From Parachlamydiales bacterium (GTDB lineage: Bacteria > Chlamydiota > Chlamydiia > Chlamydiales > FEN-1388), in NCBI GenBank assembly GCA_039806815.1, contig JBDHQC010000002.1, forward strand, positions 1-39,616: a stretch of 39,616 nt of DNA, given 5' to 3'. Of the stretch, positions 26,608 to 35,800 are shown piece by piece (the stretch's first letter is position 1; each line of letters begins with the position of its first letter). The notes below the pieces were generated by a model. The model did not search any database, was not told the origin of the DNA, and worked only from the letters and a program-made list of their open reading frames with translations. A program made the position numbers and the translations under genes.

Positions 26608-26699
26608 AAGTATCTTTGTCAATTCGACAAAATTGCATTGTAAAAATGCTCCCATTTGAGCTACAATTAACTCGATTTTTTCAATTTTGAATTACAGTT

Positions 26700-26773
26700 G
26701 GGGTATTAGCTCAGTTGGTTAGAGCGCCACGTTGACATCGTGGAGGTCAGCTGTTCGAGTCAGCTATATCCCA
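26700..26773 (+). tRNA. tRNA-Val (anticodon GAC)
   Basis: Manual cloverleaf. Acceptor GGGGTAT/ATATCCC (one G-U), D-arm GCTC-AGTTGGTTA-GAGC, anticodon arm CCACG-TTGACAT-CGTGG (GAC at 26734-26736), T-arm AGCTG-TTCGAGT-CAGCT, discriminator A. CCA is not encoded. Confidence 0.93.
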
Positions 26774-26796
26774 TTTTTATTGCCAACTTTTTATTG

Positions 26797-28362
26797 ATGG
26801 AACGACAAATAACGTCAATATTTCAGCGCACATGCGCGTACATCGTCTCTTTACTCTCATCAAAAATTATGCCGCAACTCGTTCCCCTGGAGGTTTTTGC
26901 ATTTCCATCGCATTTTTATTGTGACTTTATTGCGCCATCATCGTGGGATCCGGCTTTTCTAACGTTTTTAGAAAATGAGATACATAGAGAATTGAGAAAA
27001 GACTATTCAATGAAAGTATTTTCAATGATGAAAGAAAATGCCTCAGTTTTTTTAAAAGAGCACAAGATGGATTTTCTTTCAGAACGCGTTTTATTTTCTC
27101 AATCTCCCATTGTTACACTCTTATCTTTGGATTCTGCGTACGAGCTCGTCGAAGGAGAGATCTTCAATGCGATTGAAACTCCTCCTCATATAGTCTTATG
27201 CGACTATTCCCTATTTTCGTCCGAATATCCAAAAATAGGTGAGTATCAAGTTTTGAGGATAATTGGCAGTGGTAGTGTGACTTCTAAAGAAGCAAGTCAT
27301 TTTAAGCGGCTCTTTAAACAAGCAAAAGAAAATGATCCTGTCAGGGTGGCAAAAGAACTCGAGTACTTTTATTTTCCGGAAGTTTTTGCATCCCCGATTT
27401 GGCTGCAAAAAGGACTTCAAATACGAGATGCCTTTGATGATCGGATCCAAACGATTTGTTCTGAATACAATTTTATGCGAATTCACGCGTCATCAGAAAA
27501 TGTGTATGACAGTTTTGCTATTTTAGAAAAGAATTTAAAAAGACATCGCTTTATTCAATATTCAGACGTCCCATCTCTCTCATACAACAAAGATTGCAGG
27601 GGGCTTTTTGCAACAAAAAGTGCATATTGCGACGAGTTTTGTCTCTATTTAGAAAAAAAAGAGCTCGTCAATGAGCTAAAAGATATTTTAAATTTTATAA
27701 AAAAAGTGCATGCAATTTTTAAACTTTCACCTACATGGATAGTAAATTATTCGAAAAGTTTCAAAGGTTTTTCAAAAATAATTCAAGAGCTTGTAAAACA
27801 AACCCAAATCCATTTTGAAGAAAAAGAAAACCTTGATTATAGTCCAAGCTCGACCTTTGAAGCTGTGGTAAAAGATGCATATGGAACGATTTATCCAATA
27901 AGTTGCATTGAAATTCGACAAAAGAGCGATAGTGAGAAAATAACACTCTATGGATCTTCATTACTTTCTCTAGAGCGAGTTTTGGGGCTTCTTTTAGAAA
28001 AAAATTCCGGGTTTTTGCCTTTTGCACTATCTCCTGTGCAGATGCGTTGTCTTTTAGTAGGGGAGGTAAATACTTCTTGGGGGAAGGAAGTTCAAAAAAA
28101 GATTTCCTCTTTAGGCTATCGAATTGAACAAGATGAAAGAAAAGAGGTATCACTTTCTTCTAAAATTTACGAATGTCAGAGAGCAAAAATTCCAATTTCC
28201 TTTATAATTGGAAAAAAAGAAGTAGAAAATCAGAATGTCATGCTACGTGTAAATGACGAATCGTTAAAAGAGCTCATTGTCGAAAGACCGATGAATCTCG
28301 ATGAAGTGATTTCTTTATTACAGATAGCAGATAAAAAAAATCAACAAGAGGTGCTTTACTAA
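26797..28362 (+). CDS. threonyl-tRNA synthetase-like protein, N-terminally truncated and catalytically degenerate
   Basis: Collinear with ThrRS from the editing-domain region to the anticodon-binding domain ([23 protein letters not shown] versus [36 protein letters not shown] versus GDKEVESGKVAVR). It lacks the TGS domain, the HxxxH editing motif, CHRNE, DDAH and IHRA. Start set to ATG 26797 because the track start at 26740 lies inside the tRNA. Confidence 0.7.
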   Translation: [521 protein letters not shown]

Positions 28363-28363
28363 C

Positions 28364-28888
28364 TTGAGAGTCAATCAAGAAATTCGCGCTCCAAATGTGA
28401 GAGTAATTGCTCATGACGGAGAACAATTGGGAGTAATTCCCGTAAAAGATGCATTAAAGCTTGCTCAAGACGCAGGTCTTGATCTCGTAGAAGTCGTTTC
28501 AACATCATCTCCACCTGTCTGCAAAATTATCGATTATGGCAAATTTCGTTATGACCAGACAAAACGAGAAAAAGAAAGTAAAAAGTCACAACATCAGGTT
28601 AAAGTCAAAGAGATAAAGCTAAGCTTGAATATTACTGAGCACGATCTCGATACGAAACTGAGGCATGCAAAGGAATTTCTTGAAAAAGGCAACAAAGTCA
28701 AGATTTCCTGTATGTTTCGAGGGCGGGAAATGGTGCACCAAGAGCTTGGGAACAGGCTTATTGCCAAAACGGTAAGTACTTTAGAAGACATTGCCTGGAT
28801 TGAGACACCGGCTAAAATGTACGGAAGGGTATTGAGCATGGTGTTGGCGCCTTCAACGAAGAAGAAAAAAGTAGCAAGTCCTGAGTAA
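28364..28888 (+). CDS. infC: translation initiation factor IF-3
   Basis: Motifs VNQEIRAPNVRVI...GEQLGVI...LDLVEV...SPPVCKIIDYGKFRY. The TTG start has AGAGGTG 10 nt upstream and sits 1 nt after the upstream stop. Confidence 0.9.
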   Translation: MRVNQEIRAPNVRVIAHDGEQLGVIPVKDALKLAQDAGLDLVEVVSTSSPPVCKIIDYGKFRYDQTKREKESKKSQHQVKVKEIKLSLNITEHDLDTKLRHAKEFLEKGNKVKISCMFRGREMVHQELGNRLIAKTVSTLEDIAWIETPAKMYGRVLSMVLAPSTKKKKVASPE

Positions 28889-28911
28889 TTTGCTTTTTTC
28901 GTTCGATTTTC

Positions 28912-28940
28912 TTGCGGGATACGGCAAAAAATGCTATAGT
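28912..28940 (+). promoter_or_regulatory. sigma70-like promoter candidate inside the infC-rpmI spacer
   Basis: TTGCGG (28912-28917), a 17-nt spacer, then TATAGT (28935-28940) in a 162-nt non-coding gap. Motif match only. Confidence 0.3.
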
Positions 28941-29050
28941 TTAGACGAAATTTTGAGTCGGACTCTTTGCATCTTTACAGGCGCATCCCTTTGGCTTTAT
29001 AGAAGATCAAAGAAGACTTTAAGAAAATTTAGGCTGGGAGTGATGAAGCC

Positions 29051-29245
29051 GTGACGAAAATGAAAACTGTTAAATCAGTGAAAAAAAAATTTAGAGTGAC
29101 AGCTACGGGTAAACTGAAGAGAGGGCGCCCTGGCAGAGGTCACTTGTTGACGAAGAAATCAGCAAAAAGAAAACACCATCTTGAAACGCCCGCTTATGTA
29201 GCTGGAAAACCCGCTGCAAAGTACAAAGAATTGATGTGTGTGTAA
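29051..29245 (+). CDS. rpmI: 50S ribosomal protein L35
   Basis: 64-aa basic protein starting MTKMKTVKSVKKKFRVTATGKLKR (GTG start), matching the L35 N-terminal pattern. Confidence 0.9.
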   Translation: MTKMKTVKSVKKKFRVTATGKLKRGRPGRGHLLTKKSAKRKHHLETPAYVAGKPAAKYKELMCV

Positions 29246-29280: not shown

Positions 29281-29643
29281 ATGGTTAGAGCGACAAATTC
29301 GGTTGCAAGACATCGCCGCAAGAAAAGAATATTCAAACAAGCTAAAGGCTTTTGGGGGGATAGAAAAAATCACCTTCGCCTTTCAACTGAAGCTGTTATA
29401 AATGCGTTGGCATCAAATTATCGCCATCGCAAGCAGAAGAAAAGAGATTTTCGCGGTCTTTGGATAACGCGTTTGGGTATTGCGGCAAAAATACATGGTA
29501 TGTCGTATAGCAAGTTTATATTCGGTTTGAAAAAAGCAGGTTGTGAGATCAACCGCAAAATATTGTCTGATATGGCGATCTCGGATCCTAAGGGATTTGA
29601 AACCGTCGTTGCCGAAGCAAAAAAAGCATTAGCTACAGTGTAA
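29281..29643 (+). CDS. rplT: 50S ribosomal protein L20
   Basis: 120-aa basic protein with the L20 pattern (RHRRKKRIFKQAKGFWG..., INRKILSDMAI). Confidence 0.92.
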   Translation: MVRATNSVARHRRKKRIFKQAKGFWGDRKNHLRLSTEAVINALASNYRHRKQKKRDFRGLWITRLGIAAKIHGMSYSKFIFGLKKAGCEINRKILSDMAISDPKGFETVVAEAKKALATV

Positions 29644-29661: not shown

Positions 29662-29697
29662 AAAACCCGAGTGTAGTGCTCGGGTTTTCTCTTTACA
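29662..29697 (+). terminator. rho-independent terminator/attenuator between rplT and pheS
   Basis: 10-bp stem AAAACCCGAG (29662-29671) / CTCGGGTTTT (29679-29688), loop TGTAGTG, followed by CTCTTT. Confidence 0.65.
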
Positions 29698-29708
29698 GTG
29701 GATCTCCT

Positions 29709-30737
29709 ATGAAAGAAAAAATTGAACAGTTGCGATTGCAATTTACATCCGACCTTCAAAAAGCAGCAAATGTTTTAGAAGTAGAAAATGTCAAAGTTGA
29801 ATATCTTGGAAAAAAAGGCAGCATACCGGGATTGATGCAGTCTTTAAAGAGCGTTTCTTCTGAGGAAAGGCCAGGCATTGGCCGTCTTATCAATGATCTC
29901 AAGGTATACGTTGAAGATTCATTAACAAAAGCACACCTGGAGCTTCAGGATAAAGAAGATATCCTTCGTTTTCAACGGGAAGAAATTGACGTAACGCTTC
30001 CTTCTCGAAAGAGGGCAATCGGAGCAAAGCATCTTTTAATGAAAGTCATGGATGAAATGATTGAAATTTTTTCATCAATGGGCTTTTCTGTTCAAACAGG
30101 TCCGCAAATCGACACAGAGTACTACAATTTTGACGTGCTCAACATGCCGCACGATCATTCTGCCCGTGATATGCAAGATACATTTTTTATAGCGCCAGGA
30201 GTTTTATTGCGAACGCATACCTCTAACGTTCAAGGAAGAGTTATGGAATCGACAAAGCCTCCGATTCGCATAATTAGTCCGGGGAGGGCATTTCGCAATG
30301 AAGACATCAGTGCTCGAAGTCATGTCTTCTTTCATCAGGTAGAAGGATTATACGTCGATGAAAATGTAACATTTCAGGATTTAATTTATACATTAAAAGA
30401 ATTTTCGATTCGATTTTTTGGGCCACATGTCATGCTTCGATTCCGGCCAAGTTATTTTCCCTTTGTAGAACCTGGGACAGAAGTCGACATTCAATGTCTT
30501 ATGTGCAAGGGTAAGGGTTGTGTACTCTGTAAGCAGTCTGGCTGGCTTGAGATTCTCGGTGCAGGAATGGTTCATCCACAAGTTTTGTTGAACGGTGGGA
30601 TCGATCCTGAAAAATATCAAGGGTATGCGTGGGGAATGGGAATCGAGCGTCCTTGCATGTTAAAATATGGAATTGACGATATTCGACTATTTTCAGAAAA
30701 CGACCTTCGTTTTTGTGAGCAATTTCCAGTCATATAG
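29709..30737 (+). CDS. pheS: phenylalanine--tRNA ligase alpha subunit
   Basis: Class II motifs GRAFRNEDISARSHVFFHQVEG and GMGIERP. Start set to ATG 29709 (MKEKIEQL) because the track start at 29676 lies inside the terminator hairpin. Confidence 0.9.
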   Translation: MKEKIEQLRLQFTSDLQKAANVLEVENVKVEYLGKKGSIPGLMQSLKSVSSEERPGIGRLINDLKVYVEDSLTKAHLELQDKEDILRFQREEIDVTLPSRKRAIGAKHLLMKVMDEMIEIFSSMGFSVQTGPQIDTEYYNFDVLNMPHDHSARDMQDTFFIAPGVLLRTHTSNVQGRVMESTKPPIRIISPGRAFRNEDISARSHVFFHQVEGLYVDENVTFQDLIYTLKEFSIRFFGPHVMLRFRPSYFPFVEPGTEVDIQCLMCKGKGCVLCKQSGWLEILGAGMVHPQVLLNGGIDPEKYQGYAWGMGIERPCMLKYGIDDIRLFSENDLRFCEQFPVI

Positions 30738-32856: not shown

Positions 32857-35800
32857 ATGGATTCTACTCAATCTCTACCTATCGGACCTAGTTTGCCCGG
32901 TGGAAATGTTCCGGAGACGAAAAGAGGAGAAGGTGAAAAAAAAGAGACGAAAATTTTTCAGAAAATTCAAAAAAACGAGCAAACTCTCGAACATTCCCTT
33001 CAGAAAATCGAAAAGAAAATAGAACTTGGCAAAAATGCAAATAGACAAGTGTATTTTGCAACGCTTCATGCATTGAAATTGAAAGAGAAGATCGATAAGG
33101 TTCCGGAAGGAACGCCCGATAAAGAGGCGCTTTTAAAAAAACAGTCGGAGTACGTCGAAAAATTAGCGACATTATTGCCTCAACTCTCGTCAAAAGAACT
33201 CACTAAACTTCAAAAGCGTTTTGAGAAATTAGAAGAAATGGTTTCCCAAGATCCACAGCTTGTAGCAGAACTTAAATCTGTACTTGGTCAACTTAAAGTT
33301 GCGACAGCGCGGCAAGAAATAGTGCCAAAAATCGAAAAAGAGGTAAAACTTCTTTCTAAAGAAAGTTCGAATCTTCCCTTATGGATCCAGGAAAATCCGA
33401 AAATTTCTAAACTTTATCAAGAAACCTATAAAGAATATAAGCAACAAAAGCAGGAGCTTAAAAAAGAGTTTAAAAAAATAGAACAAAATCCAGAACTTGT
33501 GACGGTGGTCGATGAAAAAAGGAAAGTCGAACTTCTCCATCGTTTAGAGAATATTAAAGAAAAGATCGCAGAATTTTCAGTATGTAAGGGATTACTCGAT
33601 TCTTTTGCAGAAGGAATTGTAGACGAAGAAAGGGCACTCCAAAATCTCGAAGATCTTTCTCGAGAAATGAAACAATTGCAAAAAGCTGCAATTGAAGAAA
33701 TTCATACTTTCACAGAAGCGGCTGTAAAGATTCAATCGCAAGAACAACCTCTTCCACCACCACCACCTCCTCCTCCTGCAATTTTCGATATTTCTAAAGA
33801 ACCAGTGGAAGAAGTAGAAAGGCCAAAAGAATTTGAATTAGAGTTGATGAAAGGAAGAGATCAACAAGTATTAAAGCGGCATCTCAATAATCTACAAAAT
33901 GAAATCGCCAATGTTTTCCAAAAAAATGGCTCTGAATCTCAAAGAGAACAAGCAATAAAAAATGTAGAAGATACCATTGTTGAGATCGTAGAGATCCTTA
34001 AAAAAGGATCCATGAATGCCCATGACATTATTTCCCGAATGATGAATATCATACTCGAGGGGATAAGATCTCCTTCTGAAAAAACGAGTTCTTTGTTTCG
34101 GGCAAATCAACGCCAAATTCTCGATGCTGTTGCAATCCAGGTTTCAAAAGAATTAAATAAGAGTGAAAGTGCTATTATTCGAGAAGATTTTGCAAATTAC
34201 TGGAGTGAGATTTCTTCATCAAAAAATGAAGAACTGAAAAGTATCGTAGAACCGATTGCGAAAAAAGCAGAATTTACAAAGTCGCATCTTTTCGAAAAAT
34301 TTGAATCAGCACAATCGCGATACCTTCGAGGCGAGACGACGAGTACAGAGTTATATACTGCAACATCAGAATTGTGCAAAATGATGATAGCCCGTCCTGA
34401 TAGGACAAAAAGTACGTTCAAAACGATTCTTCAAACTCTCGATGAGTCATTTAAATTCGAAGGAAAAGAAAAGCTTTCGCCAAAGCAAGAAGAGGTGCTC
34501 AACATCGTAGTGTCTGCTCTTCAGTCGCAATTTTCTGATGGGGTAGAGGGAAAAAATTTAGAAGATGATCTTACGACATTTGTCTATTTGGCAAACGAAG
34601 GAATTGAAGAAGTTTCAGTTGGCGAAAAATTCATCGCAAACCATCTTGCAAAAAGTGCAAACTTAGAGCTTCGAGAACCAATAGCTATAGATCCTTCCTC
34701 TGAGAAAAATGCAATTATATTTCATGCTGCAACGCACCTGGGTGGAAGTTTATCCGGTTCTGTTTATGGTATTGAAGGGGTAGATCTCGTACGACATTCA
34801 TTGCAACTTGGACTCAAAAAATTGGAAAAAGAACATGCAGGGGAAGTTGTTCGACCGACATTTATTGGGAATGAATGGCGATTTTATGTCGATGATGCAG
34901 AGCAATTGACAAAGCTTCTCGATCAGCTTGCAGAGCTCAGCAGAAACAATCCAGGGGTAACCATAATTCCTGGAAGTATTGCCTGGTCCGGAAAGGCAAA
35001 AGAAGAAGGACGACGTTCTCTTGCTTTTAACACGCTTCCTGTTTTTGAAAATGGAAGACTTGTCAATCTCTATCATAAAAAACACGAATCCATGGATATC
35101 GATACAATTTCATCTTTTACTAATCAATCAAAAGATACTTTTGGTTGGGCTACAGATATCGAAGGGTATAAAGAGGTTATCGAACAATACAATTCCAATT
35201 TTTTTATCCGCGACGATGTGATAATCGGTCATGAAATTTGTAATGATCATGTTCATTCCACTGCTAAAAGAGATTACAATGCCAGATTCCCAAGTGGAAG
35301 TGGTGCGGATATGCATGTACTTATGGCACATGGAACAATACCAAATCCACAGCGGTCTGCTACACAAGATGGGGGAAGATTTGCTTATGTCGATCATTCT
35401 TCAAATGCAAAATCAAAGTTATCAATCATTCATAGATCTGAAGCTCAAGTAAAACAAGAAGTAAAACATAGTGCGACAAATGATGATACAAGTGAACTTG
35501 GAGCATTTAAAACGCATATGCCCGAAGAATTTGTAACATTACAACCTGTTGTCGGAGAATTTAAAAATGATCTTGGCCTAATCGAAAGCGGAACGAAAGC
35601 AAAAGGGGTCCTTTCTGCAATTGCGCATCAAGCAAAGATCTCAGATGATGAACTGAAAAGCAAAATTGTAACATTGTTAAAACGGCAAAAAGAGGATTTT
35701 TATCCAAGCGAAAAGACAATTGCGAAAAAAGCATGGGGACAAAAGGATCTCGGTTTATTTCTTGGCAATGTGAAAAAGCGTTATACTTTTCAAAATGCAG

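Follow-up and report, generated by a model that had tools for sequence, protein, structure and literature searches.

Pseudoenzymes derived from aminoacyl-tRNA synthetases are already known, and the textbook example is HisZ, a relative of HisRS that serves as the regulatory subunit of ATP phosphoribosyltransferase. Domains derived from threonyl-tRNA synthetase (ThrRS) also occur outside aminoacylation, in TARSL2 and in mL39, a mitoribosomal protein with a ThrRS-like N-terminus. The ThrRS of E. coli is both an active enzyme and the repressor of its own mRNA, where it recognises an operator resembling an anticodon arm. Its contacts to the anticodon and to the operator loop are reported to be R583, E600 and R609, and vertebrate ThrRS (TRS) is a scaffold for 4EHP-dependent translation initiation (PMC6430810). 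Here we describe a ThrRS homolog, called X below, that is encoded in a 39,616-nucleotide stretch of DNA from a Parachlamydiales bacterium (assembly GCA_039806815.1, contig JBDHQC010000002.1, positions 1 to 39,616 of the forward strand; this whole stretch is the window). X lies between a tRNA-Val(GAC) gene and infC, the gene for translation initiation factor IF3, in a slot that holds thrS in other bacteria. We consider it probable that X is a ThrRS-derived pseudoenzyme kept by selection, a descendant of thrS in its original place, which may well serve as a scaffold binding tRNA(Thr) or another RNA and may be coupled in expression to infC. We view it as a pseudoenzyme, and neither as a synthetase nor as a decaying pseudogene, because the chemistry is lost, the fold is kept, and the family is under purifying selection.

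X and its three parts are as follows.

26797..28362, forward strand: X, catalytically dead ThrRS homolog of 521 residues plus stop, identified by open reading frame, homology and structure model
26797..27276, forward strand: editing-domain-like (N2) region, residues 1 to about 160, editing residues replaced
27277..28026, forward strand: linker helix and shrunken class II core, residues about 161-410, motif-3 S-x-E-R kept
28027..28359, forward strand: anticodon-binding domain (ABD, HGTP_anticodon), residues about 411-521, PF03129, E = 8.5e-9

This order of N2, class II core and ABD is collinear with bacterial ThrRS, and the TGS domain is absent. In a protein alignment anchored on E. coli ThrRS, X extends from about E. 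coli residue 73 (H73, replaced by R) to the C-terminus, and same-slot orthologs compared with the E. coli enzyme by tBLASTn align from residues 55-97. By PDB sequence search and tBLASTn together, the family is collinear with ThrRS from about residue 55-70, just past the TGS domain, to the end. A direct BLAST of X against E. coli ThrRS returns the C-terminal domain alone (E. coli 508-629), and the ABD is likewise the sole Pfam match, with tRNA-synt_2b and tRNA_SAD undetected. The NCBIfam model thrS (TIGR00418) matches X with E = 7.7e-28 and 97.7 bits, missing the curated cut-off of 383.65, and a sequence search of the PDB also identifies X as ThrRS. An AlphaFold2 model built from a 48-sequence alignment has a mean pLDDT of 90.6 and a pTM of 0.87. 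Its best Foldseek matches are the full-length ThrRS structures 1qf6 (E. coli) and 1nyq (S. aureus), with E about 1e-31 and query TM-scores of 0.69-0.77 over 582-595 alignment columns. Protein alignment and Foldseek agree with a first, sequence-only reading of the window, which had described an open reading frame (ORF) of 521 codons collinear with ThrRS from the editing region to the ABD.

The residues that make ThrRS an enzyme are almost entirely missing from this fold. Using E. coli numbering, checked on the K-12 ThrRS gene sequence, we scored 25 key residues of the zinc, motif-2, substrate-binding, motif-3 and editing sites; C334 lies in MNCPGH, R363 and E365 in CHRNE, Q381, D383 and H385 in QDDAHIF, and H511 in IHRAILGS. 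Seven diverse canonical enzymes and that of E. coli retain 23-25 of the 25, and a wider canonical set 22-25; X retains two, S517 and R520 of motif 3. All three zinc ligands are replaced (C334 by L, H385 by C, H511 by Y), as are R363 and E365 of motif 2 (each by S), the contacts to threonine and AMP (Q381 by C, D383 by E, Y462 by P, K465 by T, Q484 by E) and the editing site (H73 by R, H77 by Y, C182 by V, H186 by I). The class II core keeps 13 of 45 canonical-invariant columns. The alignment to ThrRS, a check that the sequence-only reading had suggested, finds the catalytic and zinc residues not intact, and its statement that the editing HxxxH is replaced is borne out. The same holds for its account of the class II active-site and zinc elements, apart from one detail: it listed CHRNE among elements said to include the zinc ligands, and the Cys of CHRNE is C361, which is not a ligand; the ligand is C334.

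X belongs to a family whose other members occupy the same slot. A first set comprised 16 chlamydial loci around infC. There, the space from tRNA-Val(GAC) to infC is filled by an ORF of 370-580 residues, with 15-27% identity to X over the full length and up to 31% in local tBLASTn. A wider sample came from a genome scan with the near-invariant chlamydial tRNA-Val(GAC) consensus, which gave at least 120 loci, 97 of them reaching infC. Among the matches listed, 80 of these 97 have one intact ORF in the slot (299-591 residues, median 460), 14 have no gene there, and 3 have fragments only. Orthologs were recovered through synteny, by exact look-up and by a query with the ortholog P0053. When 1.84 billion cluster representatives were searched with a profile, over 150 clusters (50% identity level) matched, with scores of 435-667 bits; a profile query of a word-indexed protein database returned canonical ThrRS only. 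These surveys show a large, unnamed family that is widespread in the sampled Chlamydiota and that most environmental chlamydiae keep.

The members examined share the condition of X. Every member scored, whether locus-derived, from databases or among 140 new representatives, retains 1-9 of the 25 key residues, as against 22-25 in canonical enzymes, and there are no intermediates. C334 and the TGS domain are found in none of the 81 locus-derived and none of the 140 library-derived members. Retention in the substrate-contact columns is 0% for M332 and C334, 5% for R375, D383 and Q484, 7% for K465 and 3% for H511, and most members have lost the loop that corresponds to E. coli residues ~297-331. 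The columns that survive are structural (G270, G372, D472, E519, R520, E527). The ABD is present in 46 of the 81 locus-derived members and absent in 34. The median isoelectric point, 6.3, does not differ meaningfully from the 6.0 of canonical ThrRS. In the chlamydial members examined, aminoacylation and editing chemistry have been lost and the ThrRS fold has been kept, with an ABD in just over half.

Two positions of the catalytic core, E519 (kept in 87% of the family) and R520 (81%), are together with S517 the best preserved, and H385 survives in 27 of the 81 locus-derived members. This pattern could be expected if X were an enzyme with another chemistry or substrate, in the manner of AsnA, PoxA/EpmA or the amino-acid:carrier-protein ligases. 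However, R363, E365, R375, Q381, D383, K465 and Q484 have been lost without a conserved replacement, and only five columns are family-specific signatures, none of which marks an obvious new active site. The deleted loop argues in the same direction, and X itself has neither H385 nor the ISSLQF motif of the family, so that a new catalytic activity appears to us very unlikely.

The public names of family members are inconsistent, ranging from 'hypothetical protein' through 'His/Gly/Thr/Pro-type tRNA ligase C-terminal domain-containing protein' to 'threonine--tRNA ligase'. Dead members recorded as 'threonine--tRNA ligase' or 'threonyl-tRNA synthetase' include MGA8164940.1 (locus L018/L109), MGM0440407.1 (P0081), NGX43357.1 (P0086) and several JGI entries. 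These wrong names probably arise because TIGR00418 gives high scores to the members that have degenerated least, the best E-value being 1.7e-134. Taken at face value, such names and scores would speak for X as a working ThrRS with an unorthodox active site that charges threonine for the organism. Against this stand the absence of the threonine-selecting zinc triad, of the motif-2 arginine and of all scored contacts to threonine and AMP, the score of X far below the TIGR00418 cut-off, the many members without an ABD and the genomes without the gene. Furthermore, C. trachomatis has a thrS gene of its own, CTL0844, whose place on the genome map is away from infC. A charging function for X is therefore extremely improbable, and threonine would be charged by a separate canonical ThrRS encoded elsewhere in the genome. 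No canonical thrS was found inside the chlamydial loci examined, nor any thrS entry in the supplements of two chlamydial pangenome papers. P0095 and P0187, considered for a time as chlamydial canonical thrS, proved to be from Opitutales.

Taken together, the likeness of X to bacterial ThrRS (class IIa; 1qf6, 1nyq, and especially the TGS-less enzymes of Verrucomicrobiota and Endomicrobium) lies in domain order, fold, genomic slot, the motif-3 S-x-E-R and, in the ABD, E600 and R609. It differs from them in its replaced zinc, motif-2, threonine/AMP and editing residues, its shorter core, its score below the family cut-off, and a rate of evolution in its family about twice that of canonical ThrRS.

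The family is maintained as a protein by purifying selection and is not a decaying pseudogene. Between loci L026 and L033, approximate omega (dN/dS) is 0.092 for X, 0.085 for infC, 0.062 for rplT and 0.117 for pheS, and it exceeds 2.6 for spurious overlapping ORFs. In 18 further pairs with 60-82% amino acid identity, omega of X is 0.075-0.24 in 17 and dS is saturated in one; IF3 in the same 18 pairs gives 0.03-0.09. Pooled by domain, the values are 0.105 for N2, 0.175 for the core and 0.166 for the ABD. The sequence-only reading had named neutral evolution, a 'pseudogene in disguise', as the outcome that would overturn it, and at the level of the family these values are not neutral. In X itself, 63 of the 70 family-hydrophobic columns are hydrophobic (background 0.40; P = 5e-18), and selection on the window copy is likely.

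These results bear on the view that X is a neutral relic, a recently inactivated thrS that is drifting to loss and whose open frame is accidental. Consistent with that view, the gene is gone in 14 of the 97 loci and fragmentary or frameshifted in a few (among the matches listed), X is one of the most divergent members, and it has no close ortholog from which omega could be calculated. Yet no member in the phylum-wide sample has its catalytic residues, which places the inactivation far back in time, and 80 of the 97 loci nonetheless hold one intact ORF. Of 19 close pairs, the 18 whose dS is not saturated give omega of 0.075-0.24, and all three domains are constrained, which is likewise at odds with drift. 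A 521-codon open frame would arise by chance with P about 2e-14, given the stop-codon density of the other five frames, and X keeps 90% of its hydrophobic core columns in a model of high pLDDT. We judge the relic explanation very unlikely.

The loci without the gene are L117 (=L021), L184 (OZ253438.1, a 1.42 Mb chromosome), L153, L137, L160, L199, L125, L134, L122, L187, L211, L196, L206 and L215; in these, infC lies 105-392 nucleotides 3' of tRNA-Val, and the dead ThrRS has probably been deleted repeatedly in the 14 lineages. The only disrupted-looking loci are L177, L161 and L191, where matches to the family hidden Markov model are split over two or three reading frames, which reflects either genuine pseudogenes or indel errors, given that the 'MFD' assemblies may come from long reads. 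Locus L204 has an 890-nucleotide spacer with no detectable similarity.

A chlamydial tRNA-Val was also seen in metagenome-assembled genomes (MAGs) whose records carry the labels Verrucomicrobia, Bacteroidetes, Verrucomicrobiae or 'Chlamydia trachomatis': L014/L152 (SZAS-6), L015/L110 (BWOrgHeat_Nextera28_MAG1), L112, L116, L171 and L157. Wherever the contig reaches far enough, X and/or a chlamydial-type infC follows (L116 and L171 end too soon), and the labels are probably taxonomic mislabels. CT832 was considered as a Chlamydia trachomatis ortholog of X and set aside, as the only paper found names CT832 nusB.

The immediate surroundings of X in the window consist of the following features.

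26699..26774, forward strand: tRNA-Val (anticodon GAC), Rfam bounds 26700-26773, conserved 5' neighbour of the slot
28348..28353, forward strand: GAGGTG, Shine-Dalgarno of infC, inside the 3' end of X
28364..28888, forward strand: infC (IF3), TTG start, beginning 1 nucleotide past the X stop
29051-29245, forward strand: rpmI (L35), part of the rest of the ancestral cluster
29281-29643, forward strand: rplT (L20), part of the rest of the ancestral cluster
29676-30737, forward strand: pheS (PheS), part of the rest of the ancestral cluster

The reading frame of X is open from 26740, inside tRNA-Val. Its start is taken as the first ATG 3' of the tRNA, at 26797, and its stop is the TAA at 28360-28362; the start is backed by an N-terminal helix that aligns with orthologs and by high pLDDT from residue 1, and a gene caller chose Met25 instead (P0001, 497 residues). 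From the end of tRNA-Val to the ATG we measure 22 nucleotides, where 23 had been reported. The rest of the earlier layout agrees with our coordinates: an open frame, a stop 1 nucleotide from the infC start, and a Shine-Dalgarno inside the ORF end. The IF3 of the window is 57-72% identical to IF3 of Chlamydiota MAGs, ahead of every other phylum. Between infC and rpmI lies a spacer of 162 nucleotides (28889-29050) with no Rfam match, and in many bacteria the L20-binding leader of rpmI-rplT sits at this place.

Evidence that the slot is the ancestral position of thrS comes from outside the chlamydiae. In several non-chlamydial bacteria, tRNA-Val(GAC) lies directly 5' of an intact, canonical thrS-infC-rpmI-rplT-pheS cluster, namely at L106/L107, where the canonical ThrRS lacks a TGS domain, and at L037, L086 and L047, which are Ignavibacteria-type genomes. 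Because the tRNA-Val(GAC)-thrS-infC arrangement is intact in unrelated bacteria, X is a positional descendant of the ancestral thrS and not an inserted paralog, and because the tRNA-Val-thrS linkage is also present outside chlamydiae, it is old. The sequence-only reading had the slot right; instead of its word 'paralog', X is better called a positional ortholog of the ancestral gene. Among canonical enzymes, those closest to the family in sequence lack the TGS domain, measure ~580-620 residues and have intact active sites; they are found in Verrucomicrobiota (Opitutales P0095, Methylacidiphilum P0188) and in Endomicrobium and its relatives. Since these nearest canonical relatives are TGS-less yet intact, the absence of the domain is probably ancestral for the lineage and not a product of decay, so that the earlier observation of a missing TGS domain stands and its reading as a sign of decay does not. 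A distance tree was uninformative on the origin of the family: distances were saturated (1.94 within the family versus 0.87 among canonical enzymes), and long branches of archaea and of the candidate phyla radiation were drawn to it.

A fuller history can be proposed, although we hold it only tentatively and think it rather doubtful as a whole. In the chlamydial ancestor, a native, TGS-less thrS of the type found in the Planctomycetes-Verrucomicrobia-Chlamydiae group would have been displaced in function by a second ThrRS encoded elsewhere, possibly of horizontal origin. The old gene would then have been exapted as a non-catalytic regulator that binds tRNA(Thr) or another RNA, is co-expressed and translationally coupled with IF3, and has been kept across the sampled lineages.

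The expression context of X suggests how such a coupling could work. Two further features lie 5' of tRNA-Val.

26565..26597, forward strand: terminator-like hairpin, stem of 14 pairs with a T-run behind it, matching the consensus only
26638..26667, forward strand: promoter-like site TTGTAA-18-TACAAT, 9 of 12 matches, no more than in shuffled sequence

The hairpin ends the upstream PARG/macro-domain gene and forms the 5' boundary of the unit, and the second site, ~30 nucleotides 5' of tRNA-Val, is a candidate promoter for a putative tRNA-Val-X-infC transcript. A consensus scan of the window gave no terminators between tRNA-Val, X and infC. Among the matches listed, X starts no more than ~30 nucleotides from the tRNA in 70 of 80 loci; in 34 of the 80 its end overlaps the start of infC, and in 28 more it ends within 30 nucleotides of that start. 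Among 91 chlamydial loci, infC begins with TTG in 77, with TTA in 7 and with ATG in only 2, and a GGAG-type Shine-Dalgarno precedes the start codon. In E. coli, the AUU start of infC is linked to autoregulation by IF3, and the conserved non-AUG start in chlamydiae would by analogy fit the same kind of control. We propose that X is made from a tRNA-Val-X-infC polycistron and that ribosomes finishing X would stop on or next to the Shine-Dalgarno and TTG of infC, which would couple IF3 synthesis to the translation of X; judged from the arrangement of the genes, such translational coupling is a reasonable inference.

The same facts can be turned into a case that the protein is functionless and that only translation of the ORF, or DNA signals within it, matter for infC. 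In 62 of 80 loci (among the matches listed), the X stop adjoins the start of infC or overlaps with it, the infC Shine-Dalgarno is inside X, and in E. coli infC promoters are located inside thrS. A spacer role would not constrain amino acids, however, and dN is far below dS in every domain of the family, whose fold is preserved. Moreover, 14 lineages among the matches listed have infC directly after the tRNA, so that its expression does not need X. Coupling is therefore not the sole role of X, because selection constrains its amino acids and because infC is expressed in 14 lineages that have no X; we give the spacer explanation very little weight.

If X is a ThrRS-derived pseudoenzyme that acts through binding and not through catalysis, the likeliest ligand would be tRNA(Thr) or an RNA resembling its anticodon arm. 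The ABD is the most canonical part of the family, with a mean retention of 74% of invariant columns and of 9 out of 11 in X. Among ABD-bearing members, 46 of 50 retain the E. coli contact E600 and 44 of 47 the contact R609, and X retains both. This conservation of E600, R609 and the ABD columns suggests that members with an ABD still bind an anticodon arm like that of tRNA(Thr), and E600 and R609 make non-catalytic RNA binding by X itself plausible. The ABD may hold the ligand through its E600/R609 surface, on a scaffold that has the shape of ThrRS and is probably a dimer, and this binding would give X a regulatory or chaperone role in translation. Lineages that lack the ABD would have to rely on the N2 and core scaffold, which may act through partner proteins, the real ThrRS for example.

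E. coli ThrRS as the repressor of its own mRNA is one point of comparison; two of its three ABD contacts are conserved in X, and the sequence-only reading had invoked an operator of this kind. The E. coli repressor is also an active enzyme, however, while the X locus has no operator-like hairpin, R583 is replaced, and the ABD is absent from many family members. Because the hairpin scan and Rfam were both negative, an E. coli-type operator at the X locus is not supported, and that idea finds nothing in its favour inside the locus.

Several observations weigh against reading X as a selected RNA-binding scaffold. One of the three RNA contacts is lost, R583 being Y in X and H in most members. A search for hairpins mimicking an anticodon arm gave 6 scattered matches in 98 tRNA-Val-to-infC loci and none in the window, and Rfam found no element at the locus beyond the tRNA. 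With no ABD in 34 of 81 members, the domain is dispensable in many lineages, and anticodon-type RNA binding cannot be the universal function of the family. The gene itself is dispensable in some lineages, being absent from 14 of the 97 loci and fragmentary in 3 among the matches listed. X is one of the most divergent members: it keeps 50% of the family-consensus columns, where the median is 76%, and even the ISSLQF motif of the family is gone. No close orthologs of X were found in the protein database, in species-representative genomes or in JGI metagenomes, and the exact protein has no other record. The omega values of the family are approximate, as dS is high and near saturation in many pairs, with dN far below dS throughout. 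The earlier proposal that X is retained for a non-catalytic role is well founded as to retention, given the replaced residues and the low omega of the family; the regulatory or scaffold function is something we infer.

Among the known aminoacyl-tRNA synthetase derivatives, HisZ is like X in being a class IIa homolog that has lost the aminoacylation residues and is kept for a non-catalytic role. HisZ has no ABD, which likens it to 34 of the 81 family members, whereas X retains the domain. It also differs from X in its setting: no metabolic partner gene lies near X, which has stayed in a translation operon and has translation genes only as neighbours, with IF3, L35, L20 and PheS downstream. The eukaryotic ThrRS-like proteins share with X the apparent use of ThrRS-derived domains as binding modules in translation outside aminoacylation. 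Vertebrate TRS, unlike X, is eukaryotic and catalytically active, and it binds through a vertebrate-specific N-terminal extension. Literature searches turned up no earlier account of this family, or of any dead ThrRS that is retained at full length, widely within a phylum, in the ancestral thrS-infC slot.

Two other genes of the window deserve mention. The gene directly 5' of the unit (25134-26555, forward strand) encodes a protein of 473 residues whose N-terminus is rich in Pro and Gln; a poly-Thr run and then a PARG (microbial-type poly(ADP-ribose) glycohydrolase)/macro domain (PF10021, E = 2.5e-27) complete it. The protein may be secreted and act as an effector on ADP-ribosylation in the host. 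Further downstream (32857-36390, forward strand) is an ORF of 1177 residues with no Pfam match at E <= 0.001.

Since pseudoenzymes derived from synthetases are known, what appears new here is a dead ThrRS kept widely in the ancestral slot across a phylum. One practical consequence is that genome-completeness checks and metabolic reconstructions can count the dead copy as thrS. The family also provides a natural experiment on what a synthetase scaffold does without catalysis, and it is a marker for gene displacement early in chlamydial evolution. If the proposed displacement and exaptation proved true, X and its relatives would represent a new class of bacterial translation factor made from a dead synthetase.

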